Below, piece after piece: positions 4,514-26,532 of a stretch of 28,969 nt of DNA. The notes beneath the pieces were generated by a model that was given only the letters and a program-made list of their open reading frames with translations, was not told the origin of the DNA and made no database searches. This DNA comes from a virus: the IMG/VR virus record IMGVR_UViG_3300005287_000001, one strand, 5' to 3'. Position 1 is the first letter of the stretch. Each line of letters begins with the position of its first letter. Both the position numbers and the translations under genes were made by a program.

Positions 4514-4540
4514 ATAATAATATTTGAACTGGCAATACTA

Positions 4541-4907: not shown

Positions 4908-5320
4908 AAATGTAGTATTTGATTTTTATGTTTACTATTTGGTAGGGATATATGTATCCAGCTATAATTACGTTCATTGATTAGCTGCCCTACCACAATC
5001 TAACCATCTTTAATCATCTATTGTGCTAATTCAAACAAACGTCTATTATCTGCCAATCCTATATTAATATCTGCAGCCTCCCCATAGAGGTGCTAACTAG
5101 TCTTACTACCATTAACAGCCTTATTTAATTCTGGACATCTATAGCCAGATGTTATCTTTATTGGTTTCTTAAATTTATCTCTTAAAGGCTATAAAATCTC
5201 CCTAGCCAATCTAGAGATATTATTCTTTACAGATTGGCTGGGAGCATTATCAATATGTAGCCTATAAGCAGTAGAAGAAGCTACAAATTCTTCTAGTGTA
5301 AAATTATTTGTTATTTCCAT
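4904..5320 (-). CDS. Endolysin, zinc peptidase M15 family (Peptidase_M15_3-like), 138 aa, with 4 in-frame TAG codons
   Basis: ATG at 5318-5320. The motif is ...KITSGYRCPELNKAVNGSKTS(Q)HLYGEAADINI...YSWIHISL, giving the H..D..H metal-ligand pattern typical of this family. TGA at 4904-4906. Absent from the standard-code track. Confidence 0.85.
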
Positions 5321-5851: not shown

Positions 5852-8800
5852 TTAACTATAATGTAGAGATTTATAATAACTATACAGATATGGATATGTA
5901 TCAACATTAAGCTTATTGCCATCTATATCACACAAATAATATTTAGAACCCTCTTTATAGAAATAGTATTCATAAGTAACACCCTTCTTTCCAGAAGTAT
6001 ATTGCCACATTTGAACAGCATAAATTGTCTTAGATGATGATCCTATTGATTCACTATACTCCAATACAGCATAATGTCTATACCAACCACTCAACGATGT
6101 TAGAGAATTCAAATCAGATGATGTGATATTATTAGCTGTCTTAGACGATTTGGCTGTGTATGCTCGACCATTATAAGTTGATGGATTAGAGTTACCACTG
6201 ATTCGGTATGTCTTAACAGAACTAACCTACTTATAACCTTCGTTGAATTTATAGTAGGTAGATGTGCTACCTATCTTAGATCCATAAATATCAGCACTAC
6301 TAATCTGATTGCTGGATAGTGAAACATCAGATATTGGATAAAGTGTTGTTATTTCTGACCAGCTATTATCCTTAGCTTCAACATAATAGGTAATTCCGTT
6401 TGGCCCTAAATCATATAAGACTTCACCATTCTATATAAACTGTAGGATAGCATTACCAGAACTATCCACACCAATCTGTATATTAACAGAACCATCAGTA
6501 CCTGCAACTTGCATCAATCCATTCTATAGAGTGATTGTAGCAGAACCAGTAGTAGTTAGTTTGTTAGCCTCAACAATATTGGTATTCAATTTACCTTCGC
6601 TGTTTAATAAGGCTGTCTGTGTACCACTATTATTCTATACAACAACCGTATCTGCTGTAAGTGTTATCTTTCGATTCTCTATATCTATACCAGTTTCTAG
6701 AGTTAGTTTCCTATTCAATATAACCTCTGGCGGAACCATAAATCCAGTAAGTACTCCAAAGTCTGCAACATACCATCTTCCTACTACACCAGTAATACCG
6801 TATGCCCAATTTAGTGTACAAATGCTATCATAAGCAGAAGTAAACGTTACAAAATAAAGATACCAACCATAACCTAGAGAAATCTTATCTGATGAATTGG
6901 TAAGTCTGTTGTAAGAACCAGAATCATCTGAACTATAGCAACCAGCAGTTAAGGTTGTAGATCTACTATTATAAGGCTTAGCAATAACATAGTATGTTAT
7001 AATAGATCCATTATAATCATCATATATATATGGTGCAACAGTTGTGCCCTATGCATAGGCTGCTGTCTCACTAGTTGCTGTATAATATAGATTACGATAG
7101 TGCCAACCAGTTTCTGTATCCTTAGCCTTTGTATTAGTTACTCCAGAATCCTAATGACTGAACCAATCACCAGTAGCAAACGGCTGTACAATAAGATTGT
7201 TAGTTTCTAATGAATAATCACCTTGTGCGAATCCCCAGTCAGTTGCAATCTGACCTTCCTCCAACTGTAACCAGTGAATCATATAACCACTACTATTCGT
7301 AATTGATAAGGTCACATAACCAGTTGTTGAGGCTGTATATGTGCTACCATTACTAAGTGAAGTACCATTCAGTTTAGTTGTAATAGTTCCTGCAGCAGAG
7401 TAAGTATAAATATACGTTGTACCACTCTCTATATAGACTTGTCTGGTAATAGATTTAATACTACCACCAATCAGAGATTGTGGGATTATATTATTAAACT
7501 CAGTGAGCTTACCAATCTTAGCTGAAATCTTATCAGCTGTCTGTGTTATAGTAGATACACTATTTTCCAGAGTTGTCTGTTTATTAGTAAGTGTATTAAT
7601 TGATGTTGTATGACTGCTAACAGTAGAGGACAAACTATTTGCTGTAGCTTGTACACTAGCAATATTAGTTTTATTGGTTTCAATATTAGTTTTATTAGTT
7701 GCAATATTAGATGTATTAGTTGCAACATCATCCTCCAGATTATCAACATCACTATTTAAACTGCTAATGGAAGAAGTATGGCTAGCAAGTGTTGCCTAAA
7801 TACTAGTATCAGTCTATTGTAATTTAGATATGTTAGTTTCATTGCTAGTAACTCTTCCATCTAAGTTAGATATGGAAGTAGATTGACTGCTTACTGTTGA
7901 GGACAAACCATCAACTGTTGCTTCCAAAGATGTCTGTTTATTGGAGATGTTAGTAATTTCTTCTGTATTACTGCTAACATTACCTTCCAGATTGTCTATA
8001 TCATTTTCACAAGCAGATATTCTATTCTCTAATTCAGTAGTATCAATTCCACCTATGTCTATAGACAATTCACCATTAGCTGTCCATTTGATTTTACCAC
8101 CAGCTAATTGGCCAGAACCATCTTTATTAAATTCCCACATACTATTAAGGTTACGCATTGCACCAGTTAAGTATGCATTCTCAGCATATAATCCTTGTCC
8201 TTCCAGAGTTGTACCATTCCATACAATACCCTCCAAATTACCGATTCTCACATTAGTTGGAACTGTTCCACCAGTAGAATCTACATCAGCAAGTACACTC
8301 TCACTGTTAAGTTGTTTCATAAAGTCTATGTAAGCACCATCATAAGGATTCAATTTAATAATGGTCTATCTGTTCTCATCAGATTTATTACCAATCCTTA
8401 TTAAATACTTATTCACAGCACTATCTGGATCAACTGTAGTCCAAGTGGTTTCACCTCTATCATTAGTAGAAGATCCACCAGTAAAGCCAGTATTTGGAGT
8501 TACTCTAACTGTATTGTCACCATCTTTATTAACTGAGACCACCAATCCTTTAAATGACCATATCTAAGTCTCAGAAGCCTTATACTGTAATTGTACATAA
8601 TCATTAGCTACAAATGGAGGATATTCATTAATAGTAAATATCCACTCATCACCATCTTTTGTAACCTTCTCTATCTATCCAGTATCTGTTACTAACAAGA
8701 TACCATTAGTTGCTCTCATCTCATTATATGTAATCACATAAACATCTAGGTTGCCATTTACTTTAACATTACTGAACTCTGCAGTACCATCATTTTGTAT

Positions 8801-9571
8801 GCGCCAGCCATTACCACTACCACTAGTAAATGATGGACTACCTATATCTAGACCAGTGCTTATGTAATTACTACTTATTCCTAATGCTACATTATTTGCT
8901 TTATCAACAATATAGAATCCATTTTCAACTACAGACTTTATTTCAGTTGGATATTCGGATTCTGTACCAACATATATCTTAGTACCAGAGGTTTTATTAA
9001 CCATATCCAAATCATTCCATATAGATGTTGTATCATCATTTACTGCAAACACATCAGTTTTGTTTGGTACAATATGGAACGTTTGGTCTGTGCTGCCAGA
9101 TATATTTAAGCAGTGATTTTCATCCTCATTGATACCCCAACAGTCAAATTGGAAACCATTTTCCAAAGTAAGCTCATCCACCTTTAATTGAGAAACATCA
9201 ATCGTTTCAGATGTAAGAGCTGTGATATTTGCAGAATCAATATCTAATGGTTCTGTAAGTGTAAGATTACTAATAGTAGCACTTACTATATTTGCATTCT
9301 CTGCTGTAAGTATTCCAGTAAAGTTTGCATCAATACCAGTAAGTGTACCAGTAATATTAGTCTCACCTAAATTAGCTATTGCTGCTGTAAGTTTATCTGT
9401 ATCTATTGAGTAAGCCGTTAATGTATTAGTTGTAATCTTCTCACTACTAAATTTAGTTGAATAACTGCTACTGCTAGATGTATTGGCATTAAATTTAGAT
9501 GTGGAAGAAGTGCCAGAATTACTACTACTGCTACTTCTGGCACTCACCCTTATATTAATTAAATCACTCAT
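5852..9571 (-). CDS. Giant tail fibre / receptor-binding protein, 1239 aa, with 11 in-frame TAG codons
   Basis: One frame joins track fragments 8675..9571, 7814..8353, 7151..7633 and 5852..6112. TAG codons start at 8675, 8564, 8366, 7814, 7796, 7151, 7049, 6635, 6524, 6431 and 6227. No TAA or TGA occurs inside. The central region has Ser/Thr/Asn-rich heptad coiled coil. The ATG overlaps the upstream TGA (ATGA), and the stop is TAA at 5852-5854. Confidence 0.8.
7659..7722. repeat. Three tandem 21-bp repeats inside the tail-fibre gene
   Basis: caatattagttttattggttt / caatattagttttattagttg / caatattagatgtattagttg. They encode 7-aa repeats (TNKTNI-type), in frame. Confidence 0.7.
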
Positions 9572-12252
9572 ACTTCTTTTAAAGTTATGGTTGAAGATGC
9601 CATTCTCATATCTGTATTAATAGACAAAGGATAAAATGTTTTACCTAAATATCCGATAGTATAGGTATTGAATGGACTAACATTAATAGTATTATTATCT
9701 AGTGTTGTTTCAACTATTATCTTAGGAGTATTGAACTCTTTATAATAGTGATCAACGTATAGTTTCTCAGCATAGGCTGTTATGCCTTCATTATTATCGG
9801 TAAGGTTCTTAAAGGCTGAATTGTCACTAACATTAATTGCCGTTGATATATTAATCGTCGGGGCTGCAACACCTAATTCATAAGCCTCAGATGCACTTAA
9901 AAGAGTATTGATATTAAATTCAACATCATCTTTCTTCTTTATATATTTGTCCGTTTCATCTGAACAGTAAACAATATCAGCATCCCCATCATTTTCTATA
10001 TTACCATTATCGCTAACAATCTTACATTCAAAGTCCTTTATAACAATAGCACTGATGTTGTCTAGTACATTCTTACTGTTGGCATAAAACTTAGTGCTCC
10101 TAAACATAGTTGGATGTCTCCTCCACACAGTAACGAACTCACTATTTACTGGAGCAATTATACGGAATTCTAATTGTCCATATAAATCAGAAGGAATAGC
10201 AATTGCAGTACCTTCATTATCTCCTAAATTCATACTGTCTGTAATGTTGTTAGAGATGTCAAATTTGTTACCAACTATGTAGTCACCAATATTTGGATCA
10301 TATCCTAAAGAGAATGATGGTATTGCTTCCTCAACAACTGATGCATCTGCTGTACCACTAGTTTTAGCTGTTTCCCATTCTTCCTTAGTCATCCATTTAT
10401 AAGTACTGTCATATCCCCAAACCTTATTACCATCACTGTCTAATGTATAGTTACAAAGTTCTACACAGTACTTATCACCAACCTTTAATTGGCATTGTAA
10501 AATACCTATCTTACCAATATTATCTGATACTGAACCATCGCTGTTATAAGCATATTTCCAAGTATCATTTTTCCAATCTTCATCTGGATCAGAGAAATAA
10601 AACCTATCTAAATAATATGGATAATTAGTTGGATGTCCAGAAGTAAGTTTATTAGTACCAGTACTGTCATAGAAGTAAACTCCATAACGACCATTACCAG
10701 AACCTTCTCTGTTATTGTCTACAACTGACCACCAACCATCAGTATACCAACTATGATTTAAAAGTGGTTGCAACATCATCTCACCACTAAAGACAAAATA
10801 GTTAGTTGCATCATCACCACCAATCTGTCCCCAAGCTGCTGCTGTGGTAGATTTGTAAACTATAATACCAGTATCCTCTTCAACTGCTTTATTATAAATA
10901 GTCTGGAGGTAATTACCAATTTCAGCAAACTTAGTTTCACTATCATCACCACTACCATTAACTGTAATAGTTATATAATTCTCCATACTATCTGGAGCTT
11001 TATAAGTAGTAGATGAAGCAGTACCAGCCTTGTGTTCTGTATGTCCCCACTTAGCTAAGAAAGGACAATACTTATAATTCTGTACCTAATCATAAAAGGC
11101 AAGGCTGTCAGTACTAAGTGTTCCGTTATAAACTGATTTGAAGTTTGAACCATCAAAGTAATTGAAGTCCCAACTAGCATTATAGGCTAATTTTGTAAAG
11201 AAGTCTGTTGCTTCTTGTGCATCATAGCCATCATCATAGTCATTCATCATCCAGTTATGGAAACCACTATTAGATGATTTACCTTCACCAAATGCCCATA
11301 TTTCAGTCATATATCTCTTCCTGCGAGGCCATAAAGATGTAACTGAATCATCATCCATTGGAGATGAAATAACATCTTCTATAGACTCTAATTTATCTGT
11401 AACTGCTATCTGATTATAAACATCAGCAACAGAAATATCTGTATCATCTGACATATAATCATTAACAGTAACGGTTAAGGCTTCTGAAGTAAGTGTAGAA
11501 GCAGTATCTCCTCTAAGAGTAATCCAACTAATGTTGTTATTCTTTACACTGTTCCAATCAAATATATAGAAGTCCTTACCTTCTTGTATAATATGTAAAT
11601 TAAGGAATTTAAGGATCTCTTCCAGTAATTCCTCATTTGTATACATATCATCAAAATCCTCTCCTAAAAAGAGGTTTTCAGAAACACCAACAGTTGTAAA
11701 GACATTCTCACCATTATTAGTTTTAGAACCATCATAATAAATACAACCGTCAGTATCACCAAATATAATATCTAAATAATCATAGAATGACCTAACTTCA
11801 CTATCAATTTTTCTGGCATTATAAGCACTTTCATTTGATGCTAGATAGTTGTATTCCAGAGTTGCCAGAAAATCGGTACAGTTAATCTTTATTGAATTGT
11901 ATGTTTCACTATATGGCTGTGTATAGACATTAGGTTCTATATGGCCATAAAAGACTACTGTATCTCCTTTAGAGACCGTTACTGTAGTATCTGATGGCTT
12001 ACCAGCAAACAAATAGTCACCTAACCATTTAGTACTATAAAATTCAATCTCTGCGGATTTCTTTATTATGTGTGTGAAGTTATCCTCACATTCTGTTTCT
12101 ATCTGTAACGGATCATCGCTGAAGTAGCACATAACATTACCATCGGAATCAGTTGTTTCCTCAAAGGTAATGTTAGTGCCTACAGCTGTGGATTCAATAA
12201 CTACAGTTACTAAATCATCGTTAATGTCTTTAAAACTACCAGTTATTTTCAT
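9568..12252 (-). CDS. Distal-tail / baseplate-hub protein, 894 aa if the single TAG at 11086 is read as sense; equals track ORFs 11086..12252 plus 9568..10986
   Basis: Both ORFs are in the same frame. They are separated only by TAG (11086-11088) and 33 open codons. The position directly after the tape measure matches the Dit/Tal slot. The ATG overlaps the TMP stop, and TGA is at 9568-9570. The function is assigned by synteny only. Confidence 0.55.
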
Positions 12253-15176
12253 TATTTTATTCCAGTATTTTTACCTACTGTTCCTTTTACTTTACTATAA
12301 TTTCGTAGTGCCATATATAAGTCAGAACCTTTAATCCTAACTTCACCACCTACAACTCCTCCAGTACCACCACCGTTGTCCAGTATGTTCCAGAGGTTAG
12401 CTTGCTGGCCTTTAGTAAGTACAGCTTCACCACCGTTTACTCTAATTAGATTTTGGTCACCTACAAATCCATTGCCATTAACAATACCACCATTAGCAAA
12501 TGCACCAGATATAGAAGCAATAGCTGCTATAACTGCAGCAACACCCATTGCTATAGCTACTATGTTCATTGGGAAAGGCATACTAGAACCACTAGCAGTA
12601 GCACCAGAAATACCCTTAGCTGTATTAGCTGCAACTATTGTACCAGCATTAGCAACCTCTTGTTGTGCATTTTGATTCTTAACCTATTGGTTAGCTGTTT
12701 CAGAAGCTGTCAGCATATCAGTAGCCATCTTTACTGTATTCATTATAGTCTATACAGATTGTAAAGTAGTAGTAACCACACCTACAACACTAGTAAAGAT
12801 CTCCCAAGCACTAGCACCTTCTTCTATTGCAGATACCATATTGGAAACTGAACTACCAATATTATCAATGGCACTAATAGAATCATTAAGATTATCTAAA
12901 CTTAGCCCTTCTGTATCAATCTCCAGTTTTAATGGTTCTAGACCTTCCTTCTGGAGTATTTCATTAATTTTAGCTAGTTCAGCCTCTGCCTATTTCTTAT
13001 TAATGCTACCAATCTATACATCAGTTTGTAAATTAGATACTGCTGTCTATGCATTACTATAAATTTCTCTCTTATTTTCCCTAGTTTGTTGTGGAGTCTT
13101 TACAGTAACAGTTGGAGAAAGTTGATTAAACATCTTCTACATCTCCTCCTTAGTTGGCATTTTAATCTTAGGTGTTACAACTGGCACTAGAGATTCAGCC
13201 TTAATAGACTTTTCTAAATCTTCTTTAGCCTTCTTTAATTCATTAATCTTACTTTGTAAGGTAACAGAAACTGACTTATCTGCAGATGCATTAAGTTGCT
13301 TAGATAATTTAGATATTTCTTGTGAATACCAATCTAGTGAACCTTGTGCTGCAACATCAGATTTCTTAGTAATGCCTTTGGATTTTCTACTAGAAGGTTT
13401 ATTATTGTTGTCAGAAACTACATCAAGTTTATTTGTTAAACTTTTGGCAGCCTTCTTTATTGCATCAATTCTCTTTTGTATATTAGCAGCAACTGCTTTA
13501 TCTGTAGTTTTATTAAGTTGTTTATAAAGCTTGTTTAGTTCATTACTATACTACTGAAGCTTTTTTGTTGATGGATCCTTAGTCTTATCAGTGGTATTGT
13601 TGTTTTGCGTCAGGCGTTTATTGTTGTCTGCTTGCCTTTTAAGATTGTCTGCCATTTCCTGTGCGGCCTTTTTCGCCAATTGGTCTTCCGTTCCTAATAA
13701 CTTTCGAACAGGGGCAAATGCTGCATTGGCTGCTCTGTTAATACTATCAAGCCAATCAACAACTGTCTTTAACCCATTTACAAGCTTTGTAACAGCTTTA
13801 ATAGCTCCAACCTTTATATCTGATACAAACTCATCCCAACCTTTACCAGACACATCAAAAAGGCTTATGATTGCTCTCTTTAAATCTTCGGTAGCATCCA
13901 TCTGTTCTTTGGCAAGTCTTACTCCTTCGGGTGCGTTATCGTAAAGTTCCTGCATATTACCCTTAATATCCTTAATGGTAGTTAAGAACTGATAACCTGC
14001 GTCTTCACCCGGACCTCCGAAAATGTCTGATATAGCCTGTCCAACCTCTTGTGCCTGTGGTGACATTTCTGACATTTTTTGACTAACTTGTTTCATTACA
14101 TCAAAAGTGGTAATAGAACCATCAGCTAAGCCCTTCATAACCTTCTTTGAATCAATGCCGATTGCGTCAAGTGCCTTTTGTACTGCAGGTGACATTTCTC
14201 TAATTCGGATATTTGCTTCCTTAATGGAATCTACTGCCTTATCACTAACAATACCTTGCTGCTGACTTCGGATTATTGTTGTAGATAGTTCGTCAATACT
14301 CATCCCTGCTTCTTTTGCGTAGGTAGAGTACTCCTCCATTTGAGATTTGTACTCATCCTTATCAACGGCAAGGTTTAAACCATCCTATATTGAATCTGCT
14401 GCTTCTTGAAAACTTACACCCATCTGTCTCGCAACAGTGTTAGCCGTCTTAACAACGTCATCCATACTCATACCAAACTGCTCTGCTGTTGTTTCGCAAG
14501 TTGCTCTAAAATCTATAAGGGCTTGACCTCCAAGTCCTGTGAACTGTTGAATGGCCTGATTTGCTTTTGAACTCTCAGCATTGAAGTCTACAAAAGCCTT
14601 TGCACCTGCTATAACACCTGCTGCAACTGCAGTAATACCAGCACCTTTAATCATCGTACCACTAAGTTCTGGCATTTTAAAGTCCTTCACACTAGCCATA
14701 GATGATTGTAGGTTCTTACTAAATGAGGTTATATCTCCACTCTTTAAAGAGCTGATCATATTAGATATGGAATTACTAAGATCGTCTACAGATGATTTTG
14801 CACTATCCATAGCTTCCTTAGTTTCACTAGCAATCTTACTCTATATATTAGTATATCTTTGTAATTCACCAACTAAAGTTTTATAAGCACTACTAGTTTC
14901 CTTACCTTTATCAGCTAAGTTGGCAAGTTCTTCTTTGATATTCTTTATTTTACCTTGTAAAGTCTTGCCAGAACCTCCTAATGCCTATAAATACTTTCGT
15001 ATTTCTTTCTCATTATCACCGACTGCATCGGTTACATCATCCAGATTGCCCTTTAATTTTTTAAGACCAGCTCTTTCAGATGCATTATTAAGGTCTTTTA
15101 TGTTATTGATGGCATCTTTTATACCACCAGAAAATTTACTGGTATCTAGTACCAGTTCTTCCTTTAATTGTCCCAT
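12252..15176 (-). CDS. Tail tape measure protein, 974 aa, with 10 in-frame TAG codons
   Basis: One frame joins 14985..15176, 14385..14810, 13551..14339 and 12252..12581. I checked every intervening codon. TAG codons start at 14985, 14841, 14385, 13551, 13137, 13047, 13014, 12990, 12750 and 12684. There is no internal TAA or TGA. The product is alpha-helical and Ala/Lys/Gln-rich with a Gly-rich C-terminus. TAA at 12252-12254. Confidence 0.85.
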
Positions 15177-15810
15177 TATATTATACCCTTAGATTTAAGT
15201 AATTCTTCTCTTTTCTTAGCTTTTGCAAGCATCTATTCTCTCTTCTCTTTGGTCATTGTTACTTTAGGGAGGTGCGGAACTTCTTTGTCCCAACTAAATT
15301 GTATAATATCTTTGGGCTTTAGTTTCTTTTTAGAATTGGCTTGTGCAAGTATGTAGCAGATAGACCTAGTTTGTTCCCAGTCCTCTCTGACTGAATATCC
15401 CATCTTTTTTATAATAGGTTCTAGTTCATATCGCTACATCTTGTCCATAAAATACTCTACCGAAACACATTTATATTGTAGGCAAAGTAAACACATTAAG
15501 TCCGTAAACGTAATTACTTCGCCATCCCTTTTTTTTCTGCTTGTTCTCCCTGCTGTAAGCTCTTGCTACTATCAACTACCCATTGATTAAACTTAGCAAA
15601 CTGATCTGGATTACTGTCCAACCAGTCTAAGAAATCATCAAACTTCAGTTCAATGTCTGGATAATTAGCTAAAATCACCGCAAACATATAAGTAATCATA
15701 TCTGATACTGTCTGTGGATTAAACATCTTACTTGTTATAGTTTCATATATAATATATGATCTGAACTTATTTTTAAGTTCTAATTCGTTACCGTTAATTG
15801 TTATTTTCAT
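15176..15810 (-). CDS. Tail assembly chaperone GT-type fusion made by -1 frameshift; the T part has 2 in-frame TAG codons
   Basis: After the A8 run the -1 frame stays open for about 118 codons (KKRDGEVITFTDL...KREELLKSKGII). It runs to TAA 15176-15178, which overlaps the tape-measure ATG. TAG codons are at 15434 and 15233. Confidence 0.6.
15514..15810 (-). CDS. Tail assembly chaperone (gpG-like), 98 aa
   Basis: It lies between the major tail and tape measure genes. It is acidic, with a slippery run near its 3' end. TAA stop and no TAG. Confidence 0.7.
   Translation of the reverse strand: MKITINGNELELKNKFRSYIIYETITSKMFNPQTVSDMITYMFAVILANYPDIELKFDDFLDWLDSNPDQFAKFNQWVVDSSKSLQQGEQAEKKGMAK
15529..15536 (-). 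promoter_or_regulatory. Slippery A-run (A AAA AAA G) for -1 programmed ribosomal frameshifting
   Basis: The zero frame reads GCA GAA AAA AAA GGG, 5 codons before the chaperone stop. The -1 frame is open downstream. Confidence 0.6.
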
Positions 15811-15874: not shown

Positions 15875-16339
15875 TCAACCGTTTGTACTAGCAGTGGTTT
15901 TAACTAATGCACCTACACCGTTGAAGGATACACTGTAAGTAGCCAGTTCACCGTTACCTGCTGTCATAGATATACTAGAGATAACTGCTTTACCAGAATA
16001 CATATCATTGCTGGAAGTCCAACCACCTTCTGGTACGATGTGTCCATCATCATCTGGATCTGTCGTTTTATCTTTATTAGCTACAGTAGCAAATACGAAG
16101 TCCAAAGACTTACCAGCTAACATAGCATCTACTAATTCAGTGTAATCTGCTACAACCATAAGGTTATCACTAGTAGCTGACCAGCTCATTTTACCTCTCT
16201 TGGTAGCTCCCCACTGTCCCGTATCTTTACAACTGATGTCAATATCATCAGAGTTGATTTCTACACTACAAGAAGTAGCGCAACCTAAAGTTTTACCACC
16301 CAAGAATACTTGGATGTCTTCACCCATTAAATTAGCCAT
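15875..16339 (-). CDS. Major tail protein (TP901-1/phi13-like)
   Basis: 154 aa, in the expected position. The pattern GGKTLGCATSCSVEINSDDIDISCKD...WSATSDNLM is typical of this family. TGA stop and no TAG. Confidence 0.75.
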   Translation of the reverse strand: MANLMGEDIQVFLGGKTLGCATSCSVEINSDDIDISCKDTGQWGATKRGKMSWSATSDNLMVVADYTELVDAMLAGKSLDFVFATVANKDKTTDPDDDGHIVPEGGWTSSNDMYSGKAVISSISMTAGNGELATYSVSFNGVGALVKTTASTNG

Positions 16340-16345
16340 AATAAA

Positions 16346-16729
16346 TCAAAAAATTATATTTGTTTCAAATGTTAGAGTTTGAATATATGCATCTTCTATA
16401 AAATTTTCCACCACTCCAGTAAGATAAATCCTACCAAAGTAATCATCTCTATGTAATTCTAATATCTTCCTTATTCGTTCAGCTATTGTAGCCGTTTCAC
16501 TATAGTTCTTAGAAGCTATAGCTATAGAGAAAGTAATACTATCCTTTACTACATTAGTTTTAGTATATTCTGTACTAAGAGAATTTCTAGTAAATATGAT
16601 AAAAGGATAGCTTACTGACTCTTCTGCCACAATAGGGAAAATATTATTACCTACTAATTCGGATAGTTCACTATCTTCTTTTAGTAAGGCATATAAGTAT
16701 TTATTAAAACTAAGACCAGTAACTTTCAT
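16346..16729 (-). CDS. Tail completion / tail terminator-like protein
   Basis: 127 aa. It lies between the neck genes and the major tail gene. TGA stop and no TAG. Confidence 0.55.
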   Translation of the reverse strand: MKVTGLSFNKYLYALLKEDSELSELVGNNIFPIVAEESVSYPFIIFTRNSLSTEYTKTNVVKDSITFSIAIASKNYSETATIAERIRKILELHRDDYFGRIYLTGVVENFIEDAYIQTLTFETNIIF

Positions 16730-17175
16730 TGATTATATTTTTTATATATTTTCTCTATAGCATTTTCCAAATTAGATTGTAATGACTGCTCCACTAGTTG
16801 TGAGGTATCAGCAACTGCTTTACTAAAGAAGTGTGTTGCCTCCATCTTACCTCTATACTGACCAGATTTATTATAACGACCGACTGTTCCGTTTTCAAAG
16901 AACTTTAATTTAAAATTGCCTTTATTGGAATTACTGATAATCTCAGTTCTTCCAGATAAACCACTTTTACTTACTTTTACTATTACACCACCCTATAGTG
17001 TTAGACCCCATTTATCTGGCTTATTATATGCGGTAGTTACTCCCATAAGGTTCTGAACAGCCTTTCGTTTAATAATATTTAGAGATTGTGTCATTCCAGA
17101 TCTGATAGCTGGTTTTAGTTTTTCAACTTCAATAGCCTTTAGAAATTGCTCTAATTTTCTACTGTCTAATTTCAT
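16726..17175 (-). CDS. HK97 gp10-like neck protein, 149 aa, with 1 in-frame TAG
   Basis: The 16993..17175 fragment continues through the TAG at 16993 to TGA 16726-16728, which overlaps the next ATG (ATGA). Assigned by synteny and size. Confidence 0.55.
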
Positions 17176-17489
17176 TCAGTAATCAGTTCTGTAGTTATTA
17201 CTTTCTTGTTCTAGTCCTTTACTGGCTCAATTGCCAGTATTCTGTATTTCTTAGAATCCCATTCTATATAATCTGTTTCAATAACATCTACATAATAGTA
17301 TACCTCAAATGTCTTATTGTATATATAAACTAGAGCATTATTCTCTGTCAATCTGTTTCCAGAATTGTGAATAATTCTTGCTCTAGTTGTGACATTCAAA
17401 GCGTACTCTTGTACCTACTCACCATAGTCATTCTAAACTGTAGTTGTTCGGTATATATTTATAATATCAGTCAATAATCCTGCTCTCAT
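17172..17489 (-). CDS. Head closure / head-tail joining protein, 105 aa, with 3 in-frame TAG codons
   Basis: Product is MRAGLLTDIINIYRTTTV(Q)NDYGE(Q)VQEYALNVTTRARIIHNSGNRLTENNALVYIYNKTFEVYYYVDVIETDYIEWDSKKYRILAIEPVKD(Q)NKKVITTELITE. This is the typical Phage_H_T_join pattern. The TGA at 17172-17174 overlaps the next ATG. Confidence 0.7.
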
Positions 17490-17514
17490 ATCATACACTT
17501 TGACGTTAAACGTT

Positions 17515-18741
17515 TTAACTCTTTACCAGTATTGCTTTACCCTCACTATCAGTAGATTCGGTAAATGTATATCCAGCATTAGATAATCTGGCAATCAGCC
17601 ATTCTTTGGTTGTGTCAGAACAGTTGGTAACATATACAGTTGTCAATAAGGTACAATGGTCAAACATATATGTATAGTTAGTAACTGCTGTGCTATCAAA
17701 ATTATCCAGATGTATAGTTTTTACTGCATAACAGTAACGGAACATACTATTAGTATTAGTAAGTACTGATGAGGCTAGCCAACTAACATCTATATCCTCT
17801 ATAGACTGCCAATTATAATGCATACCACCAACAATAGTTGCAACTGTATTCTATGTGGTAGGTGCTGAATAACTAGTAATTTTCGTAAATCCAGATAGGA
17901 AGCTACTAAAGTTAGTGCTTTGTGATACATCCCATTTACTAAGATCTAAAGATGTAATTCCAGTATTGTTATTTAAATCTAGGAACTGTTCAAAGGTAGT
18001 AACCTTAGAAGTATCAATTTCACCTATATTTAATTCCTTTAGACTGTTGCACCTATAAAAAGCTCTCTTCATATTGGTTACTGCTGAAGTATCCATACCA
18101 TTAAGTGTAACTGTTTCTAGTGCAGAACACTCATTACACAAATAGTTTAGTGTAGTATTAGAGGAAGTGCCAGTAAATCCAGATAAATCTAAGTTCACTA
18201 ATGAGGAGCAAACATTAAACATAGCATCCATAATAGTAACTGCTGTTGGATTCCATCCAGTTAAATCTATAGATTTTAGAGATTTACAAGACTAAAACAT
18301 CTGACTCATATTAGTAACCTTAGAAACATCCCACATAGATAAATCTAAGGAAGTTACTTTAACACAATTATTAAACACCCTATACATATTGGTTACATTA
18401 GAAGTATCCCATCCAGTAAAGTCAAAATTAACTAAAGGAATATTACCAGTATTGTCATTAAATATTCTATCCATAGTTGTTAGATTGCTGGAATCACAAT
18501 ACTTTAACCAACTCATATCATAGGTTTTAGTGGTATCAAATGCGTTATTAGTCCACCTAAAATTCCACTAATTAGGTAATACAATACTAGGTGGTGCAAT
18601 ACCTTCTATAGAAGTAACCTTATCTGCATAGCTTCTAAAAGTGTCACTGTCAGAAACAGTAACACCTTTATTAACTAATGCCTCTTTTATCGCTGTTTTA
18701 GTATCATTTAAATATGATAACTTTTCCGATATAGTTCCCAT
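17515..18741 (-). CDS. BspA-like leucine-rich-repeat (26-residue surface-protein repeat) protein, 408 aa, with 3 in-frame TAG codons
   Basis: It joins 18292..18516, 17851..18231 and 17515..17823 in one frame, with TAG codons at 18568, 18292 and 17851. The repeat F..C..L.SLDLS.WDVS.VT.M..MF recurs. The N-terminus is MGTISEKLSYLNDTKTAIKEALVNKGV. TAA at 17515-17517. Confidence 0.75.
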
Positions 18742-18743
18742 AA

Positions 18744-20831
18744 TTAAACCTCCTCACCATTAATTGTATCCAACAGAGTAGATATATTACCAATAGTACT
18801 TTCAATCTCAGTTATTTTGGCTGTAATAACCTTATTCTGTACTGGATTCTCTGAAGTATCAGATAGTTCGGAATCTACAGTAACAGAACCTCCTCCACCT
18901 TCAGAGATAACCTCTTGAAGTGATTTAGCAGAATCCCAATTGGTGCCGTCATAATCACCAATACCTTTTATATAAGTGTAACCGTCTGCCATTATTTGAA
19001 GAACATTGCTTCTTGCGTTAATAGAACCATCACCTATTGTAAATTTAGTACCGTTGTGGGTAGTATCTGAGCCACTTGTTACAAATTTATTGTACTGTCC
19101 CAATGCAACTTCCGCTTCATTTACAGCATAATTATCCTCACCTATTGCAACTGAATATTTACCTGTTGCTTGGTTACTTTGTCCTATTGCAACTGACGGC
19201 TGACCATTTGCGGATGCAGAATTACTCATACCAATGGCCGTTGAGGCATAACTATTTGCAGCATTAGAATATCCAATAGCCGTTGAGGCATAACCATATG
19301 CCTTATTACTACTACCTATAGCAGCACTATATTGACCACTAACAGTATTATAACTTCCCAAAGCATAGGTGTAATCGTAGGCCTGTCTATTATTATTGTA
19401 TTCACCAATCATATAACTATAAGCACCTGCTTTATTGTTGTAACCTGCTGCAAAACCATATTGACCACTTACTGTGTTTGAGCAACCTATGGTTGCACCA
19501 TACATTGCACTGATGGTATTGTTACGACCTGCTGCAAATCCATACTCACCACTAACGGTATTTGACTCACCGCCAACAAGAGCTTCTGATTCAGATACTT
19601 TATTGCTTGTGCCAAATACAGCCGAATAACTACCCTTTGTTATGCTATTATCGTAACCTGCCACAAAATTTTGGTAAGTATTGGCCGAAATGGTAATATT
19701 ACTGCCAAAAGCTGCTGATGCCTTACCTTCAACTGTATTGTCACAATCTACTTCAGTACCACTCCAATGGGTGTAAGTACCTTTCATCTTTATTGAACAG
19801 TCACCATCATTAACCAAATTAAGAGTTGAGTTAATAACATTATCATCTGTTATTTCTAAAGAAGTTCCTGCGGTATATTCTGTTCCACCTCCAGTAGCTG
19901 ATATTACATTATCAGTAATAGTAATGTTATCACCTGCTGTAAGTGTGTTTTGCTTAGCAGCCAACAACTCATCTGTAGCTGTTTTATTATAGTATTGTGT
20001 AGGATCGAATGTTCCACCTCCTGCAACTTTCTCATCAATAGTAGCCTTATCATAAGTATATTCTGAAAGGGCTGTACTATCTATATAATCACCAGCATCC
20101 TATTTATTGGCTAGTGCTGTATTTACTTCTGTCTTATATTCAGTAAAGGTAGTATCTGTTACATAATCACCTTTATCCTATTTTGTATCTAGATCCTCTT
20201 TAGTTGCATAGCCATCTAATGACTAATGCTCTGTAAGATAGCCAGCATCATTAGTAAAGGCAGATACTTTAGTAGGAAAATCTGTAATATCTGTAGTTGT
20301 ATGTGTATGTTCTAAGGCTGCTTTATTATTAAGTACAGCCGTTATAACTTTATTTTGAACTGGATTTTCAGAGGTTTCTGACATCTCATCATCAACTATA
20401 CCTCCACTATTCTCCAATGCTGTAACTCTCTAATCTAAACTATCTTCAGCAGCTAATGCTCTAGCTATTTCTGTATCAATTGCCTTCTTTAATTCTTCTA
20501 AATCAATTTCGCCAATATCAGTAGTATCGCCAGTTCCATAATTTCTGTAAAGATCTATAAGGAAATTATAACTGTTTGGAATCTCTACTGCTGTCGTATA
20601 GGCTACTGATTCTCTGTTGGCATAATAGTTACCCACCAATAAAAGTAAGGCTTGTTTCAGAGGAGCAGGAATGTCACCTTTATCATCCTCCAAATCAGTT
20701 AAATATACATTAAGATGCTTAGCAATAGCACCTTCACAAGCCAGAATTAGGGCTGATATGTAATTATCATCTTCTGTAAATGTATCATTTATATTAAGAT
20801 GTTTTTTAACTTCATCAACTGTTATATACAT
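18744..20831 (-). CDS. gp6-like head-tail connector domain fused in frame to a fibre with YadA/Hep_Hag-like repeats, 695 aa, with 4 in-frame TAG codons
   Basis: The N-terminal ~103 aa read MYITVDEVKKHLNI...DIPAPLKQALLLLVGNYYANRESV...LIDLYRNY, which is the Phage_connect_1 pattern. The same frame continues with no TAA or TGA through TAG codons at 20430, 20223, 20178 and 20100. It then enters a coiled coil, HTH..DI fibre motifs and SVAIG/STAIG repeats. TAA at 18744-18746. Confidence 0.65.
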
Positions 20832-20839
20832 ATCACTAT

Positions 20840-20888
20840 AAAAATAAAAAAAGTGCAAGCAGGTAACTCTAAGTACCTACCTGCACTT
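20840..20888 (-). terminator. Hairpin plus T-rich run after the major capsid gene
   Basis: A 13-bp stem with 2 mismatches forms between 20853-20865 and 20874-20886. On the minus strand it is followed by TTTTTTATTTTT. Confidence 0.5.
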
Positions 20889-20912
20889 TAAAGGTTATTA
20901 ATTAATCAAAAA

Positions 20913-22130
20913 TCAATTTTCTGCAATAGTCTTAGCTACGATAGCTTCTGCTCTACGAGGTTTAGCATCAAAGTAAGCATTAACAACCAAGCGAACTTCG
21001 CCTTGATCAGCGAGTGTATAAGGATCAACTGTAAGGTCTATAGCACCCCACTGTGCAATTACATAGTCAGCAAAATTACCAACTACAATACCCTTAGCAC
21101 CAGCAGCTACATAAGCAGGAGTACCATCAATCTCACCATTCTCAAAGATCATACCAGTGTTGTTAGTACCCTTAATAGTGCTACGAAGAGTAGCCTTTAC
21201 AGATGGACTAACAATATAAGTATAGTCACCAAATACTTTGTTGTTCTCAAGTTCAGCCTCTAATTCACAAATATCCTTATAGTCAGCACTAATTGAACCA
21301 GCACCGTTAAAGATACCTGCAGGTTGGTTAGCTGTACCAGCAGCATCACCTAAGATAGTAGCTTGGAGCTTGTCTGTGATAGCATTTATAATATCTCTAC
21401 GCAACATCTCATCAGCAGCAGCAGAATCTTGGATCAAGAATTGCTTTGATACGTTAATCTTAGTTGTAAGACGTTTTGGGGTAAGTAATACTTCACCAAA
21501 TTCTCCTGCACCATCGTCAGCAGCTTCAATTTCACCCTTCCAAGTAGCAGATGTTCCAGCATAAGTAGGTATAGAAACATCACCAACAAGTCCAGTAAGT
21601 ATAGTAGCACCAGCTTTAGCAAGTACTAAGTTATCTCTTAGTGGATCGAGGATATTCAATTTTTCCTCTGCAACTACTTCTTGTCCAGCCGTAGCAACTG
21701 TAGCTTGTACATCAGCTCTTTCCTCAACTGGCAACTGTATTTGGCCATTGAATGAAAGGCCAGATTTACGCATTTCTGCTTTACCAACGTTAATTACTGC
21801 TTGTGCAGACTCGTCTAATTGTCTTTTATCAGCTATACTGCGAATAGCTTTTACTAATGAAAATTTATTCATACTTCTTTCCTCTTCTTCTTCTTTTTCA
21901 GCCTTTTCTTCAGTAGGCTCTGGTTCGTTATCGTCTTTCTTATCTAATTCTTTGTCAATCTCAGCAATTTGTTCTTTTATTTCTTCCAACTCAGCTTGCT
22001 CTTCCTCGTTTAATTCTCTCTCCTCTGACTGAGCAGTGCTAAGTAATTCGTTTGCGTCTTTGATAAGTTGCTCTTTCTTATCAATAAGTTCTACAGTATT
22101 CATACTGCGAAATGAAACTTTCTTCTTCAT
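20913..22130 (-). CDS. Major capsid protein, HK97 fold, with an N-terminal acidic coiled-coil (scaffold-like) region
   Basis: 405 aa. It follows the prohead protease. The N-terminus is Glu-rich. TGA stop and no TAG. Confidence 0.9.
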   Translation of the reverse strand: MKKKVSFRSMNTVELIDKKEQLIKDANELLSTAQSEERELNEEEQAELEEIKEQIAEIDKELDKKDDNEPEPTEEKAEKEEEEERSMNKFSLVKAIRSIADKRQLDESAQAVINVGKAEMRKSGLSFNGQIQLPVEERADVQATVATAGQEVVAEEKLNILDPLRDNLVLAKAGATILTGLVGDVSIPTYAGTSATWKGEIEAADDGAGEFGEVLLTPKRLTTKINVSKQFLIQDSAAADEMLRRDIINAITDKLQATILGDAAGTANQPAGIFNGAGSISADYKDICELEAELENNKVFGDYTYIVSPSVKATLRSTIKGTNNTGMIFENGEIDGTPAYVAAGAKGIVVGNFADYVIAQWGAIDLTVDPYTLADQGEVRLVVNAYFDAKPRRAEAIVAKTIAEN

Positions 22131-22138
22131 ACTTTATT

Positions 22139-22729
22139 TTATTTAACTAATAAATTCTTTCGTAAATTAGAGTAATATTCAGCAAGTTTTATCTTGCGTA
22201 ATTCTTTATTCTCAGCTTCTTTTATTAAATCTAGGCCTCTAGTATCTACAACAACACTAGTAGCGTCATAAGCAGCTCTATAAACTGGTGAAACATCAAA
22301 CAATTCATTAATATGTGTTATGATTCGTAAGTAAGAACCATCATCTTGTTTCTCCCATTTGTCCTCTGCAACAGTAAATGCAAAACTAGATGTAGATATA
22401 TCACCCCTTTTAACACCTTCTAGTAATTCATCACCTAATGCAGTATGTGGTGCTTCAAACTTATACATAAGTCCTATATCGTCTATACTTAAAGATAGAC
22501 TACCAACACCTTGTTTAGATCTTGCAAGAACACCCCTTTCTTCATTATGGTCTAATAAGGCCAGTACATCCGATTGATCTATAACACCTTCTAGAGCTGC
22601 TGGATCTATAATCTCAATAAATCCACCTAAATCATTAGATGGAGTATTAAATACAGCAGCATAACCACTAATCATACGGCTATCTACTGTATCCAATCCA
22701 ACATCACCAATATTTCTTTTTTCTATCAT
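22139..22729 (-). CDS. Prohead serine protease, HK97 family
   Basis: 196 aa with ...SGYAAVFNTPSNDLGGFIEIIDPAALEGV...LLDHNEERGVLARSK.... TAA stop and no TAG. Confidence 0.9.
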   Translation of the reverse strand: MIEKRNIGDVGLDTVDSRMISGYAAVFNTPSNDLGGFIEIIDPAALEGVIDQSDVLALLDHNEERGVLARSKQGVGSLSLSIDDIGLMYKFEAPHTALGDELLEGVKRGDISTSSFAFTVAEDKWEKQDDGSYLRIITHINELFDVSPVYRAAYDATSVVVDTRGLDLIKEAENKELRKIKLAEYYSNLRKNLLVK

Positions 22730-23988
22730 ACCTCTGTATTCGTTACATCCTCTTGTTTAACAATCTCCTCATTCTCTATTCTGTTATCTGTAGCTACATT
22801 ATTACTTGCATTTTTTAAAGTCATAAGATTTACTTGGCAGAAATGATTATCACCACCATCAACGGCTGGCAAATCAAATTCTTTTCTTATCTCATTAACT
22901 GATACAACACCAATATTGAATAAAGTATTGTAATAGTTAGCAAGTGACTCTTTATCTGTTCTAAGTAATCTGGATGTATCAAATCTTACCTAAATAGAAT
23001 CTCTCTCCGATGGCTTATACAATTTCCTTTCAAACTCTAACTCTATCTTTTCAAGCATAGGAGAAAGTGTATCCGTTAAGAATGATAAGTTTGTAGCTTC
23101 AACAGTACTATAGGAGCTATGAGATAAATCAAAGGCTTTTACTGGAGAAACTCCGAAAAATCTACATATATCTACCACATTGAACTCTCTAGTTTCTAAT
23201 AACTGAGAATCCTCTGGATTAACAGTAATTGGTTCATAGGTCATATTACCCTGCAGAACGGCAATACCATTAGGATTGCCAGTTTCTGGGCTGAATGCCT
23301 AATTCCAACTGTTTTTTAAATCTTGCTATTGTTTGGTTGTAAGACTAGATTCAACTTTAAGAATACCAGCTAAGTTAGCTCCACCTTTAAAGAATCCTGC
23401 TGAATGTGCTTCAGCATTATTAGCCAACTCCAAAGTATTCCTTGCATATTTTAAAGTGGATATACCAGTAATGCCATCATTACTAAAGTTAAGAATATGT
23501 ATCATATTGCAAGCCTCTACAATACCTTTAATACCTTTTACTGAGTAAGTAATATTTTCCTCATAGGTGCGAGGTTCAATAATAGTCACATATTCAGAAG
23601 GAATAAAGTGTAAAGCAATAGCATCACCAGCTAAATTCCTTTGTATGTAAGCATATCCATTTCCTTTTAAGAGTACACTAGTTACCAGTGTTTTCAAGAA
23701 TGTAAATCTAGTCATTCTCTTGTTTGGTTCTGAATTTAGAATCCTATAAGTAGGGTGTTGAACGAATTTACTTCTATATCCCTAAGCATCCACTTTGTAA
23801 GGTTCTAGTGGAAGCTGGGCTATAGAATCAGAAATTACTTCTACACACCTATATACTGCTGATAGTAATAAGGCCTTATTAGGTGTAGCCGTAAGAATAT
23901 TACTACCAAACAGTAAGTAGTCAAAACCAGAACTTCTTTGTTCCATTTGAACTGGAACTACTTTCTACTTTTTACTAAATAATCCCAT
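22726..23988 (-). CDS. Portal protein, HK97 family, 420 aa, with 5 in-frame TAG codons
   Basis: The ATG at 23986-23988 overlaps the TerL TAA (TAATG). One frame joins 23326..23715 and 22990..23244. TAG codons are at 23965, 23782, 23326, 23299 and 22990. The TGA at 22726-22728 overlaps the protease ATG. Confidence 0.9.
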
Positions 23989-25607
23989 TATATAACTAAT
24001 ATTTCATTTGTATAGTGTGGAGAATCTAAATACTATCCTAATGCTTCTATTATGGCTATTACACCATCTATCTTTTTACCCTTAACTGCTTTGTTAGGTT
24101 TAATGTTACCGTTATGATCTGATTTTAGTTGTACATTCTTAAAACACCATCTGGTAATCTCATTATTAAAGATAACAGCTTTGCCAGATAGTAGTAAACG
24201 TTCCAATTCTCTGGTTGGTTTATTAAAGTTACCTAGAGTCTGTGGATACTCAACTAAAGGTAATCCCATCTCTGTAGATTTAATAGCCCACTATGTGGCA
24301 TTGTACTTATCATAACCAACCGATTGTAAGTTCACTACATCAGCATATTTCATCATATCATTAGTAATATAGTCATAATCAGTAACATTACCAGCCGTAA
24401 TATGTAATATACCCTAATTCTTCCAACTCTTATATAATTCTCGGTCTGGTTTCTCTATTAAAGCAGATTCTGGTAGATAGTAATCTGTCCAGAAATAGTA
24501 AGTATCATCTTTAATAGCCATATAAGCAACAGCAGTCAAATCTGATGTGGCAGCCAAATCCACACCACAATATACATCACAATCTCTAAATGTATGCCAA
24601 TCAAAATCAGATGAAGCCTTAACAATATAGTGATCTGGTAGCCATACATCTGCTACGTCACACCACAAGTTTAAATTCTTAGTCTTAACTGATACTTCCT
24701 CTGATGGATTGTTTGTTGCTTGTTGTACCTATTCTCTAAGATATTTTTTAGTAACAGTAACATCTAAATTAGGAGTACATTTTACCCAATTCTCTTCTTT
24801 AGTCCAATCATCATCAACATCTAAAGAGTAAATAGCAACAAATAAAGAATCATCCTGCTTTAAGTTATGTAGAATTTCCACACAAGTTTCTCTTAATTTA
24901 TAGCAGGGCAAAGTCTTATCAAATCCAGCAGTTGTAATAGTACACAAGTGAGGATTTTGTCGCATACCCATAGATGATTTTATTACATCCCTAACCTTAG
25001 ATGTTTTAGCTGAGTGATATTCATCGACCAAACCAAAGGAAGCATTAAATCCATCCAGTTTAGAATCATCAGATGCAAATACTTTTAAAGAAGAGTGATT
25101 AGCATCTAAAAAGATCCTATCCCTATATGCTCTAAGATACTTAGATTTTGGATCTAGTTGCTTAGTAAAAGTCTGACAAAACTCATAAGCAATCTTAGCT
25201 TGCTCCTTACTATTAGCAGCCAAATCAACCTCAGCACCATCCTCACCGTCAGCTATTAAAAAGTAAAGACATAAGCCAGCAGCTAGTGCTGTCTTGCCAT
25301 TCTTTCTGGAGACTTCTATATAACTGCTGGTAAACCGTCTAGTACCGTCAGTTGTATAGAAGCCTACAATATTAGCTATAATAAATTGTTGCCAGTTCTC
25401 TAAGATGAATGACTAGCCAGAAGAACTACCCTTAAAGTGTTTCAGCATTTTAAAGAAGTTAATTGCTTTATCTACTTTATCCTCTCTAAAGGTAAGATCT
25501 GTTCTTTGTAAATCATTCTGGAACCTCTAGCAAGCCAAATATATCAGTTCACCAACCAAGATTCTTTTATTAAGGACATCATCAACATACTGATAATATC
25601 CTTTCAT
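23988..25607 (-). CDS. Terminase large subunit, 539 aa, with 6 in-frame TAG codons
   Basis: The ATG at 25605-25607 overlaps the TerS TGA. One frame joins 24729..25223, 24414..24668 and 24033..24269. TAG codons are at 25527, 25413, 24729, 24414, 24291 and 24033. The motif is ...FILENWQQFIIANIVGFYT...YIEVSRKNGKTALAAGL... (Walker A). TAA at 23988-23990. Confidence 0.9.
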
Positions 25608-26140: not shown

Positions 26141-26299
26141 ATGAAAACAAAAAAATCTGGATTTGTTGGTGTAAGATTAACACCTCATTAGGAGTTTGAA
26201 CTATCAAATATTGCTAGAGAACTCAATTTAAGTAAGAGTTAGGTAATCAGATGTAGTATTGATAACCTAATAGAATCATATTATAGCCCTATAGTGTAA
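26141..26299 (+). CDS. Small ribbon-helix-helix-like DNA-binding protein, 52 aa, with 2 in-frame TAG codons
   Basis: Product is MKTKKSGFVGVRLTPH(Q)EFELSNIARELNLSKS(Q)VIRCSIDNLIESYYSPIV. This is a beta-strand then helix-helix pattern of CopG/MobC type. TAA is at 26297-26299. The last 15 nt overlap the tRNA. Confidence 0.5.
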
Positions 26300-26359
26300 A
26301 GGTTAGCACCAATATCTCTAAAATATTAGGTCTCAGTTCGATTCTGAGTGGGGCAACCA
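26285..26359 (+). tRNA. Amber suppressor tRNA, anticodon CUA, reading UAG
   Basis: Hand-folded cloverleaf.
- Acceptor stem: 26285-26291 with 26349-26355, six pairs including one G-U; position 1:72 is A-A.
- T at position 8.
- D stem: GTGT/GCAC, with GG in the D loop.
- Anticodon stem: AATAT/ATATT. The loop is CT-CTA-AA, with the anticodon at 26318-26320.
- Variable region: 4 nt.
- T stem: CTCAG/CTGAG, with loop TTCGATT.
- Discriminator A, and an encoded CCA. Confidence 0.85.
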
Positions 26360-26370: not shown

Positions 26371-26532
26371 ATGAACAGAACAGAAACTTTTATAGAAATG
26401 TGTGAGGCAACAATAAATATGGCAAAATTAGTAAAGAAATTTGCCGTTGATTATGGCCTGCAAGATAATCCAATTTATATAGATTACCAAGATCAACTTA
26501 ATAACCTAAGTGTAGTTTATGAAGAAAATTAA
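26371..26532 (+). CDS. Hypothetical protein, 53 aa
   Basis: The ATG at 26371 lies 12 nt after the tRNA. Product is MNRTETFIEMCEATINMAKLVKKFAVDYGLQDNPIYIDYQDQLNNLSVVYEEN. TAA stop and no TAG. Confidence 0.4.
   Translation: MNRTETFIEMCEATINMAKLVKKFAVDYGLQDNPIYIDYQDQLNNLSVVYEEN

Follow-up and report, generated by a model that had tools for sequence, protein, structure and literature searches.

Gut phages that use genetic code 15 (10.1101/2021.08.26.457843; PMC7886860; PMC9523058) carry in-frame TAG codons in their structural and lysis genes and encode a tRNA with the anticodon CUA, tRNA(CUA). We analysed a phage that shares these features, the IMG/VR record IMGVR_UViG_3300005287_000001, whose whole stretch of 28,969 nucleotides is referred to here as the window, and in particular the uneven distribution of TAG among the genes of its late operon, where the gene of the major capsid protein (MCP) holds no TAG. 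Also common to the window and the described phages are a TAG-free integrase and early/lysogeny genes on the plus strand, close relatives that use the standard code, Bacteroidales hosts, and the occurrence of recoded prophages in standard-code hosts. Unlike the large code-15 clades described so far, the window phage is a small (28.9 kb) temperate siphophage of the HK97 type.

Several reports bear on how a recoded codon is distributed among phage genes. Borges et al. (10.1101/2021.08.26.457843) tested gene families for enrichment in the recoded codon, finding it in lysis genes and in a tail tube gene, and proposed that selection enriches or depletes the recoded codon depending on the family. Yutin et al. 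(PMC7886860) took stop codons within TerL, MCP and portal as a sign of recoding. In the phAss-1 paper (PMC10607447), TerL and the tape measure protein are named as the TAG-containing ones among four marker proteins; that the MCP is TAG-free is only implied. Translational codon selection on phage structural genes has been established by Lucks et al. 2008 (PMC2266997). In the literature searched, whose coverage is incomplete, no explicit report of the depletion of a recoded codon from the capsid gene was found.

TAG in the late genes of the window

The MCP gene (20913..22130, minus strand; HK97 type, PHROG 617 and 10) has 405 codons, 16 of which are glutamine (Gln) codons. A preliminary description of the window had grouped it with four other genes in which TAG would be selected against where translation flux is highest. 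All five are open reading frames (ORFs) at the positions then given, and together they have 980 codons and no in-frame TAG. The other four, on the same strand, encode the prohead protease (22139..22729; 196 codons, 3 for Gln; PHROG 80), the tail terminator (16346..16729; 127 codons, 1 for Gln; PHROG 78), the major tail protein (15875..16339; 154 codons, 2 for Gln; PHROG 1407) and the tail assembly chaperone G (15514..15810; 98 codons, 6 for Gln), for a total of 28 Gln codons. Four of the identities proposed earlier were confirmed by PHROGs, although the gene then named as a tail completion protein matches best as a tail terminator. Chaperone G has no family match in PHROGs. Its predicted identity is supported by its position and by a slippery A8 run (GAA AAA AAA GGG; 15529-15536, minus strand) just before its stop codon, where a -1 frameshift leads into the T frame (15176-15496, minus strand), as in the classic G/GT arrangement. 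The T frame, which is the low-abundance part, contains two TAG codons, compared with none in the G part.

The TAG counts reported for the neighbouring genes were also correct (6 in TerL, 5 in portal, 10 in the tape measure gene and 11 in the fibre gene). The list of genes was incomplete, since it left out a low-copy tail gene of 894 codons (9568-12252) that holds one TAG; the neighbours of the five genes hold between 1 and 11 TAG codons each. The expectation of approximately ten TAG codons in the five genes was too high; based on the rate of the other genes, we obtained 9.3 by length and 7.4 by Gln codons, and based on the pooled rate, 6.4-7.8 when normalised by Gln, lysine (Lys), both or length. 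Had the five genes been named in advance, the probability of finding no TAG in them would be 2-4e-4. Because they were picked for being zero, a permutation correction was needed. The permutation test that the preliminary description had proposed, scored on the weight held in zero-TAG genes, gave p=0.04-0.05 after allowing for this post hoc choice, and the overall heterogeneity among genes gave p=0.006-0.011. The ORF at 4451-4846, which entered our first statistics, is probably spurious; the calculations were redone with the holin-like ORF at 4650-4907, and nothing material changed. Out-of-frame TAG trinucleotides occur in the five genes at a normal frequency, which places the absence at the codon level. 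An avoidance of the TAG trinucleotide in the DNA itself was thus ruled out.

Depletion of TAG from the major capsid gene of recoded relatives

TerL-anchored scans of viral, genome and metagenome collections yielded approximately 100 loci of the window's family. An MCP-anchored scan of viral contigs had given only three short loci, so TerL was used as the anchor, which also avoids choosing loci by the TAG content of their MCP gene. Dereplication at 90% nucleotide identity resulted in 24 recoded clusters, 19 of them with an MCP gene (the window and 18 other lineages).

The MCP genes of the 18 other recoded lineages hold 26 TAG codons against 71.9 expected (Mantel-Haenszel odds ratio 0.23, z=-7.4). 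Considering all 19 recoded lineages, MCP TAG use is below that of the neighbouring genes in every one of them (26 of 281 Gln-type codons; exact stratified P=9e-17). The same depletion appears in a column-level test, which is less sensitive to shared ancestry than codon counts: TAG is ever present in 17 of 56 Gln columns of the MCP, whereas TerL has it in 45 of 77 (p=0.0016) and portal in 34 of 62 (p=0.009). The avoidance is relative and not absolute, as the capsid genes of relatives do hold from one to five TAG codons each. Two other causes were considered and rejected. Protein constraint would not account for the low TAG content, since the TAG-rich TerL and portal proteins are more conserved (mean identities 0.67 and 0.62, respectively) than the MCP (0.54); nor would a scarcity of CAG, as both CAA and CAG are raised in the MCP gene.

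The MCP gene is the only one of the five whose avoidance of TAG replicates in relatives. When the recoded lineages are taken together with the window, the major tail protein gene has TAG at 9 of 25 Gln codons, which fits the background; an MCP-like odds ratio of 0.21 is rejected at P=1.7e-4, and one of 0.5 or lower at P=0.025. The background rate also applies to the protease gene (13 of 43) and to that of chaperone G (10 of 44), with MCP-like depletion rejected for both, and the tail terminator gene is enriched in TAG (19 of 43). TerL is TAG-enriched across the family (Mantel-Haenszel odds ratio 1.79), and Neck1 is also enriched. Across 12 gene families, TAG use did not follow virion copy number (Spearman -0.2, p=0.5). 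The comparison with recoded relatives suggested in the preliminary description therefore upheld the depletion in the MCP gene and in no other of the five, and its rule that the most abundant virion proteins avoid TAG was not supported, given the null copy-number test and the four genes that are not depleted in relatives. The zeros of the protease, tail terminator and chaperone G genes in the window are probably sampling noise, since these genes are short and poor in Gln (12 codons in all, with the major tail protein gene), and the same probably holds for the major tail protein gene.

Codon bias of the capsid gene

Relative to the other late genes, the MCP gene avoids ATA, AGG, GGG and CTA (odds ratios 0.21, 0.19, 0.23 and 0.34, respectively) together with TAG (0.21), and prefers CGT (4.5), CGC (9.2), ATT (2.8), CTT (2.6) and GGT (2.0), as well as GCT and TCT. 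For the three codons that we treat as rare, ATA, AGG and GGG, the pooled odds ratio in the MCP gene is 0.22, alongside 0.21 for TAG. The MCP genes of 21 non-recoded lineages present the same bias, with a pooled rare-codon odds ratio of 0.23. The codon bias of the MCP gene is thus coherent over many amino acids and independent of recoding. Among the five TAG-free genes of the window, only those for the MCP (7 rare codons of 73) and the major tail protein (1 of 25) are biased in this way; no such avoidance is seen in the protease gene, with 11 of 40, or in that of chaperone G, with 4 of 12, and the tail terminator gene, with 10 of 24, is rich in rare codons.

An independent group of crAss-like phages

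A BLAST search of the window tRNA against a phage collection gave a single match and led us to a crAss-like phage, Dulem virus 42, in which reading by the standard code breaks up the genes. A portal-anchored scan then identified 80 related loci. Counted over 25 clusters of this TAG-recoded group, the MCP genes hold 2 TAG codons against 53.6 expected (odds ratio 0.03), and TAG use is lower in the MCP gene in 25 of 25 clusters. Across 12 crAss-like gene families, the log odds ratio of TAG tracks that of ATA, AGG and GGG (r=0.95; 0.88 without the MCP). The crAss-like TerL gene is TAG-enriched, with an odds ratio of 3.78. For the other TAG-poor crAss-like ORFs, PHROG annotation gave nothing useful. 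Based on these sequence comparisons, translational selection appears to treat TAG as a non-optimal codon in both of these unrelated orders.

In Dulem virus 42 (locus L169, PP511876.1; 7563-10835), the MCP gene consists of three exons separated by two endonuclease-bearing insertions, and a LAGLIDADG gene interrupts the TerL gene. Because the record carries a standard-code annotation, its late genes look fragmented.

Explanations for the depletion

We consider it fairly probable that translational selection purges TAG from the MCP gene as a poor codon, in the same manner as ordinary rare codons. In the late operon, TAG would serve as a sense codon for the tRNA(CUA) that the phage encodes, and it would be translationally poor because one phage tRNA is set against the host release factor RF1. 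In most late genes, TAG would drift up to 15-60% of the Gln codons, and in the MCP gene, presumably the most heavily translated, it would be removed by the same selection that acts on ATA, AGG and GGG. Slow or error-prone decoding of TAG is the cause that we infer; what is observed directly is how TAG is distributed, that this distribution replicates in relatives and that it runs parallel to the avoidance of rare codons. TAG depletion and rare-codon avoidance are equal in size in the MCP gene, which fits selection where translation flux is highest. This part of the preliminary description thus stands for the MCP gene, with its 19 of 19 lineages, its 25 of 25 crAss-like clusters and its match to the rare codons, and is not supported for the other four genes.

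Some observations weigh against translational selection as the explanation. The depletion of the MCP gene taken alone in the window is modest (p=0.012-0.036), and the lineages are related, so that p-values derived from cell counts overstate their independence. The term rare was defined internally. Additionally, rare codons are avoided in the major tail protein gene (odds ratio 0.37-0.49), whereas TAG is not (9 of 25), hence TAG in the window's family does not simply follow codon bias. Across the genes of the family, the rank correlation between TAG and rare-codon use is 0.17 and not significant, and the log-scale Pearson correlation of 0.61 is driven by the MCP. The parallel between the two holds in this family only for the MCP, tail terminator and TerL genes.

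The position of TAG within the MCP gene bears on an explanation that we judge unlikely, though deserving attention, in which the cost is one of truncation. RF1 would end some chains at each TAG, and truncated chains of the MCP would waste more synthesis than those of other genes and may poison capsid assembly; TAG should then be purged most strongly from the later part of the gene. Over the 19 lineages, TAG accounts for a fraction of 0.08 within the delta domain (residues 1-86) and 0.17 between residues 87 and 175; residues 176-405 are nearly TAG-free, with a fraction of 0.011 (1 of 92 Gln codons). In an alignment of 22 recoded genomes, 16 of the 18 TAG columns lie within the first 175 residues, and TAG occurs in 16 of 40 N-terminal but 2 of 19 C-terminal Gln columns (p=0.03). 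A truncation cost would also explain why the effect is specific to the MCP gene and spares the codon-biased major tail protein gene. Nevertheless, TAG leans only faintly towards the 5' end in the other genes (mean relative position 0.488 versus 0.525, p=0.05), so that a general 5' bias within genes was set aside as marginal outside the MCP, and both the match in size with ATA, AGG and GGG and the crAss-like correlation are more simply accounted for by general translational selection. The truncation and slow-decoding models overlap, and would not be separable from sequence alone.

A more far-reaching proposal, and one that we find doubtful, is that TAG acts as a graded throttle in recoded phages, nowhere a neutral synonym, its frequency in each gene being set by selection in proportion to translation demand, from near exclusion in capsid genes to enrichment in terminase and lysis genes; if so, recoding would also govern stoichiometry and timing over the whole genome, and would do so alike in unrelated phage orders. 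Its active form, in which the number of TAG codons per gene is itself adaptive and sets stoichiometry or timing by partial suppression, with low-copy genes throttled and high-copy genes free, seems to us improbable. It would agree with the enrichment of TerL, needed in catalytic amounts, in both groups (odds ratios 1.79 and 3.78), with that of the tail terminator and Neck1 genes, with the endolysin gene, where TAG makes up 4 of 8 Gln-type codons, with the gene downstream of the tRNA, which has the highest density, and with the proposal by Borges et al. that recoding regulates late and lysis genes. However, there is no copy-number gradient (Spearman -0.2, p=0.5), the major tail protein and protease genes are not depleted, and TAG positions are not conserved between lineages. 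The 18 TAG columns of the MCP alignment are scattered and mostly lineage-specific, without any single positionally conserved leaky stop; one conserved Gln, at residue 130 (window numbering), is TAG in seven aligned genomes. The enrichment of low-copy genes parallels that of ordinary rare codons in them, as relaxed selection predicts. The earlier view of TAG as a dosage-tuning codon is therefore not needed, since nothing requires it and passive translational selection explains the data.

Chance, by which the five zeros would be a post hoc pick from approximately 19 late genes of low TAG density, is very improbable as an explanation for the whole pattern. The selection-corrected permutation value of 0.04-0.05 is compatible with it, as are the 12 Gln codons of the four small genes, for which the probability of zero TAG is 0.04, and their background TAG rate in relatives, so that chance stands for the protease, tail terminator and chaperone G genes, and probably for that of the major tail protein; for the MCP gene, it is refuted by the depletion in 19 of 19 lineages and 25 of 25 crAss-like clusters. 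We give almost no credence to a mosaic origin, in which the capsid module would have been newly imported from a standard-code relative and would not yet have accumulated TAG. Non-recoded relatives are indeed common in the same gene pool, and two loci with approximately 95% nucleotide identity, L011 and L012, have different MCP alleles. Nevertheless, the best identity of the window MCP to a non-recoded MCP is 60%, compared with 75% for TerL; the MCPs of recoded lineages are in general no closer to non-recoded ones (60-85% identity) than their TerLs are (60-92%), and the depletion recurs in every lineage.

Relatives of the window phage

The window's family is a graded series that comprises many standard-code members, lightly recoded members, including the window, in which TAG makes up 13-25% of the Gln codons, and heavily recoded members (approximately 60%). 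Prophage relatives occur in genomes of Bacteroidaceae, Prevotella/Segatella, Sodaliphilus and Parabacteroides, and a heavily recoded one (locus L051) lies in the isolate-derived assembly of Segatella copri strain iAP1412. Recoded and standard-code members can share 90-92% TerL identity (L075 and L069 versus L100). The two near-identical loci with different MCP alleles, L011 and L012, differ in their capsid genes by 0 of 13 versus 5 of 21 Gln codons being TAG. Accordingly, the change of code and the exchange of capsid genes both appear to be recent events in the family.

Genome organization and recoding of the window

The first 110 bases of the window are identical to the last 110, which indicates a complete circular genome of 28,859 bp; the window is the complete genome of a temperate, HK97-type siphophage of Bacteroidales. 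If only TAA and TGA count as stops, the minus strand from 25978 down to approximately 3900 is one unbroken late operon, in the order small terminase (TerS), large terminase (TerL), portal, protease, MCP, a head-tail adaptor with an extension, a leucine-rich-repeat protein, head closure, Neck1, tail terminator, major tail protein, chaperone G/GT, tape measure, an 894-residue Dit-like protein, fibre, endolysin and a holin-like ORF. PHROGs provided the identities of TerS, protease, MCP, adaptor, head closure, Neck1, tail terminator, major tail protein, endolysin and integrase. Reading through TAG results in single long ORFs for TerL, portal, tape measure, fibre and the Dit-like gene. To judge by the full-length genes restored by read-through and by the presence of a tRNA(CUA) gene, the recoding of TAG in the window appears to be real.

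The putative suppressor tRNA, with anticodon CUA, was identified by ARAGORN at 26285..26359 on the plus strand and is the only tRNA of the genome. Its CCA end is encoded, its discriminator base is A73, and positions 1 and 72 form an A1.A72 mismatch. The next ORF downstream (26510-26998, plus strand) has the highest TAG density of the genome, with 7 in 162 codons. Six recoded relatives have tRNA(CUA) genes, and none was found in the non-recoded loci scanned; the lineage of the Segatella type, which is heavily recoded, showed none in the flanks of TerL that were covered (up to 10 kb on either side). The suppressor tRNAs of the family vary: that of L004 (5948-6036, minus strand) has 89 nucleotides and a long variable arm, the others have 72-75 nucleotides, and that of L029 has a T1.T72 mismatch in place of the A1.A72 of the window tRNA. 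This lack of uniformity suggests several independent acquisitions.

Gln is the best-scoring amino acid for TAG in every relative and the clear best fit for its predicted meaning there. Family-wide, the non-recoded orthologues have Gln at 31% of TAG sites, compared with 32% of CAG sites and 40% of CAA sites. At the 23 alignable TAG sites of the window itself, Gln and Lys tie at 0.75 each (95% confidence interval of the Gln-Lys difference, -0.56 to 0.59), and TAG falls on conserved Lys positions as often as on conserved Gln positions. In this genome, TAG likely encodes Gln, or possibly Lys. Codon 439 of TerL (TAG at 24291) corresponds to Gln in 86 of 94 orthologues, and residue 96 of the head-closure protein Hc1 (TAG at 17211) to Lys in 20 of 26; codon 221 of portal (TAG at 23326) is another window site that bears on the tie. 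The tie could reflect the replacement of Lys by Gln via AAG to TAG mutation, a Lys-inserting suppressor, or ambiguous charging. The ambiguity has no effect on the main tests.

The late genes used above for comparison are all on the minus strand: TerL (23988..25607, 539 codons), portal (22726..23988, 420 codons), whose orthologues were recovered in all relatives, tape measure (12252..15176, 974 codons) and tail fibre (5852..9571, 1239 codons). The distal-tail (Dit-like) gene on the same strand (9568..12252, 894 codons) has its single TAG at codon 389, among 13 Gln-type codons, and is a single uninterrupted ORF in the non-recoded loci L033, L071 and L112. It is a low-copy gene with low TAG in the window, and its relatives are not depleted (odds ratio 1.2). 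The endolysin, of the M15 peptidase type (4904..5320, minus strand; PHROG 894), has 138 codons, with TAG at 4 of its 8 Gln-type codons, and is followed by the holin-like ORF (4650-4907, minus strand), which has two predicted transmembrane segments and TAG at 2 of 3 Gln-type codons. The TAG load of these two genes is in line with the published finding that lysis genes are enriched in the recoded codon.

Three further minus-strand ORFs deserve mention. The head-tail adaptor ORF (18744-20858) has an adaptor domain of approximately 108 residues and its first in-frame TAG at codon 143 (20430-20432), past which it continues for approximately 560 fibre-like residues with repeats, an extension that is missing in relatives. 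Partial suppression at this codon would yield a short adaptor and a long fusion. A 408-residue leucine-rich-repeat (BspA-like) gene with three TAG codons (17515-18741) lies at an unusual site between the adaptor and head-closure genes. In the last late ORF (3605-4177), the TAG at 3893-3895 is the end in the standard code, giving 94 residues; read-through would lengthen it by 96 codons of low complexity, which overlap the 3' end of the integrase gene in antisense orientation, and this TAG may still be an effective stop.

The serine-recombinase integrase (2067..3662, plus strand; 531 codons; PHROG 95) has no TAG. The recoded codon is also missing from two early/lysogeny ORFs of the plus strand, one at 27855-795, which wraps around the circle, and one at 1201-1809; one exception is the ORF at 788-1204, with four TAG codons.

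Implications and comparison with known systems

The two unrelated phage groups provide comparative evidence that a reassigned stop codon stays costly to translate, which bears on whether the recoding of stop codons by gut phages serves regulation or results from drift. If TAG is costly, incomplete or slow suppression late in infection is predicted, for which the Segatella copri iAP1412 prophage would be a tractable system. For annotation, a TAG-free capsid gene does not mean that the standard code is in use. TerL is a better recoding marker than the MCP because the MCP gene can be TAG-free in a recoded phage.

In amber suppression of the E. coli supE type, a tRNA with anticodon CUA competes with RF1 and reads UAG incompletely, and the yield of full-length protein drops with each UAG, which would supply a mechanism for the cost of TAG. 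In contrast, the heavily recoded relatives of the window have approximately 15 TAG codons in TerL, which implies a high suppression efficiency. In programmed single-site read-through, such as that of the Q-beta A1 protein, a stop codon sets the ratio of two products. Here, there are many TAG codons per gene at positions that are not conserved, and codon 143 of the adaptor is the one candidate for a site of that type. A close precedent for the capsid gene is the codon selection described by Lucks et al. 2008 (PMC2266997), with which our results share a coherent preference in the capsid gene relative to its operon neighbours, whether or not the phage is recoded; they differ in that the avoided set here includes a reassigned stop codon read by a phage tRNA. 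The evidence supports an avoidance of TAG in the capsid gene that is real, replicated and mechanistically ordinary, and that extends these known principles modestly.

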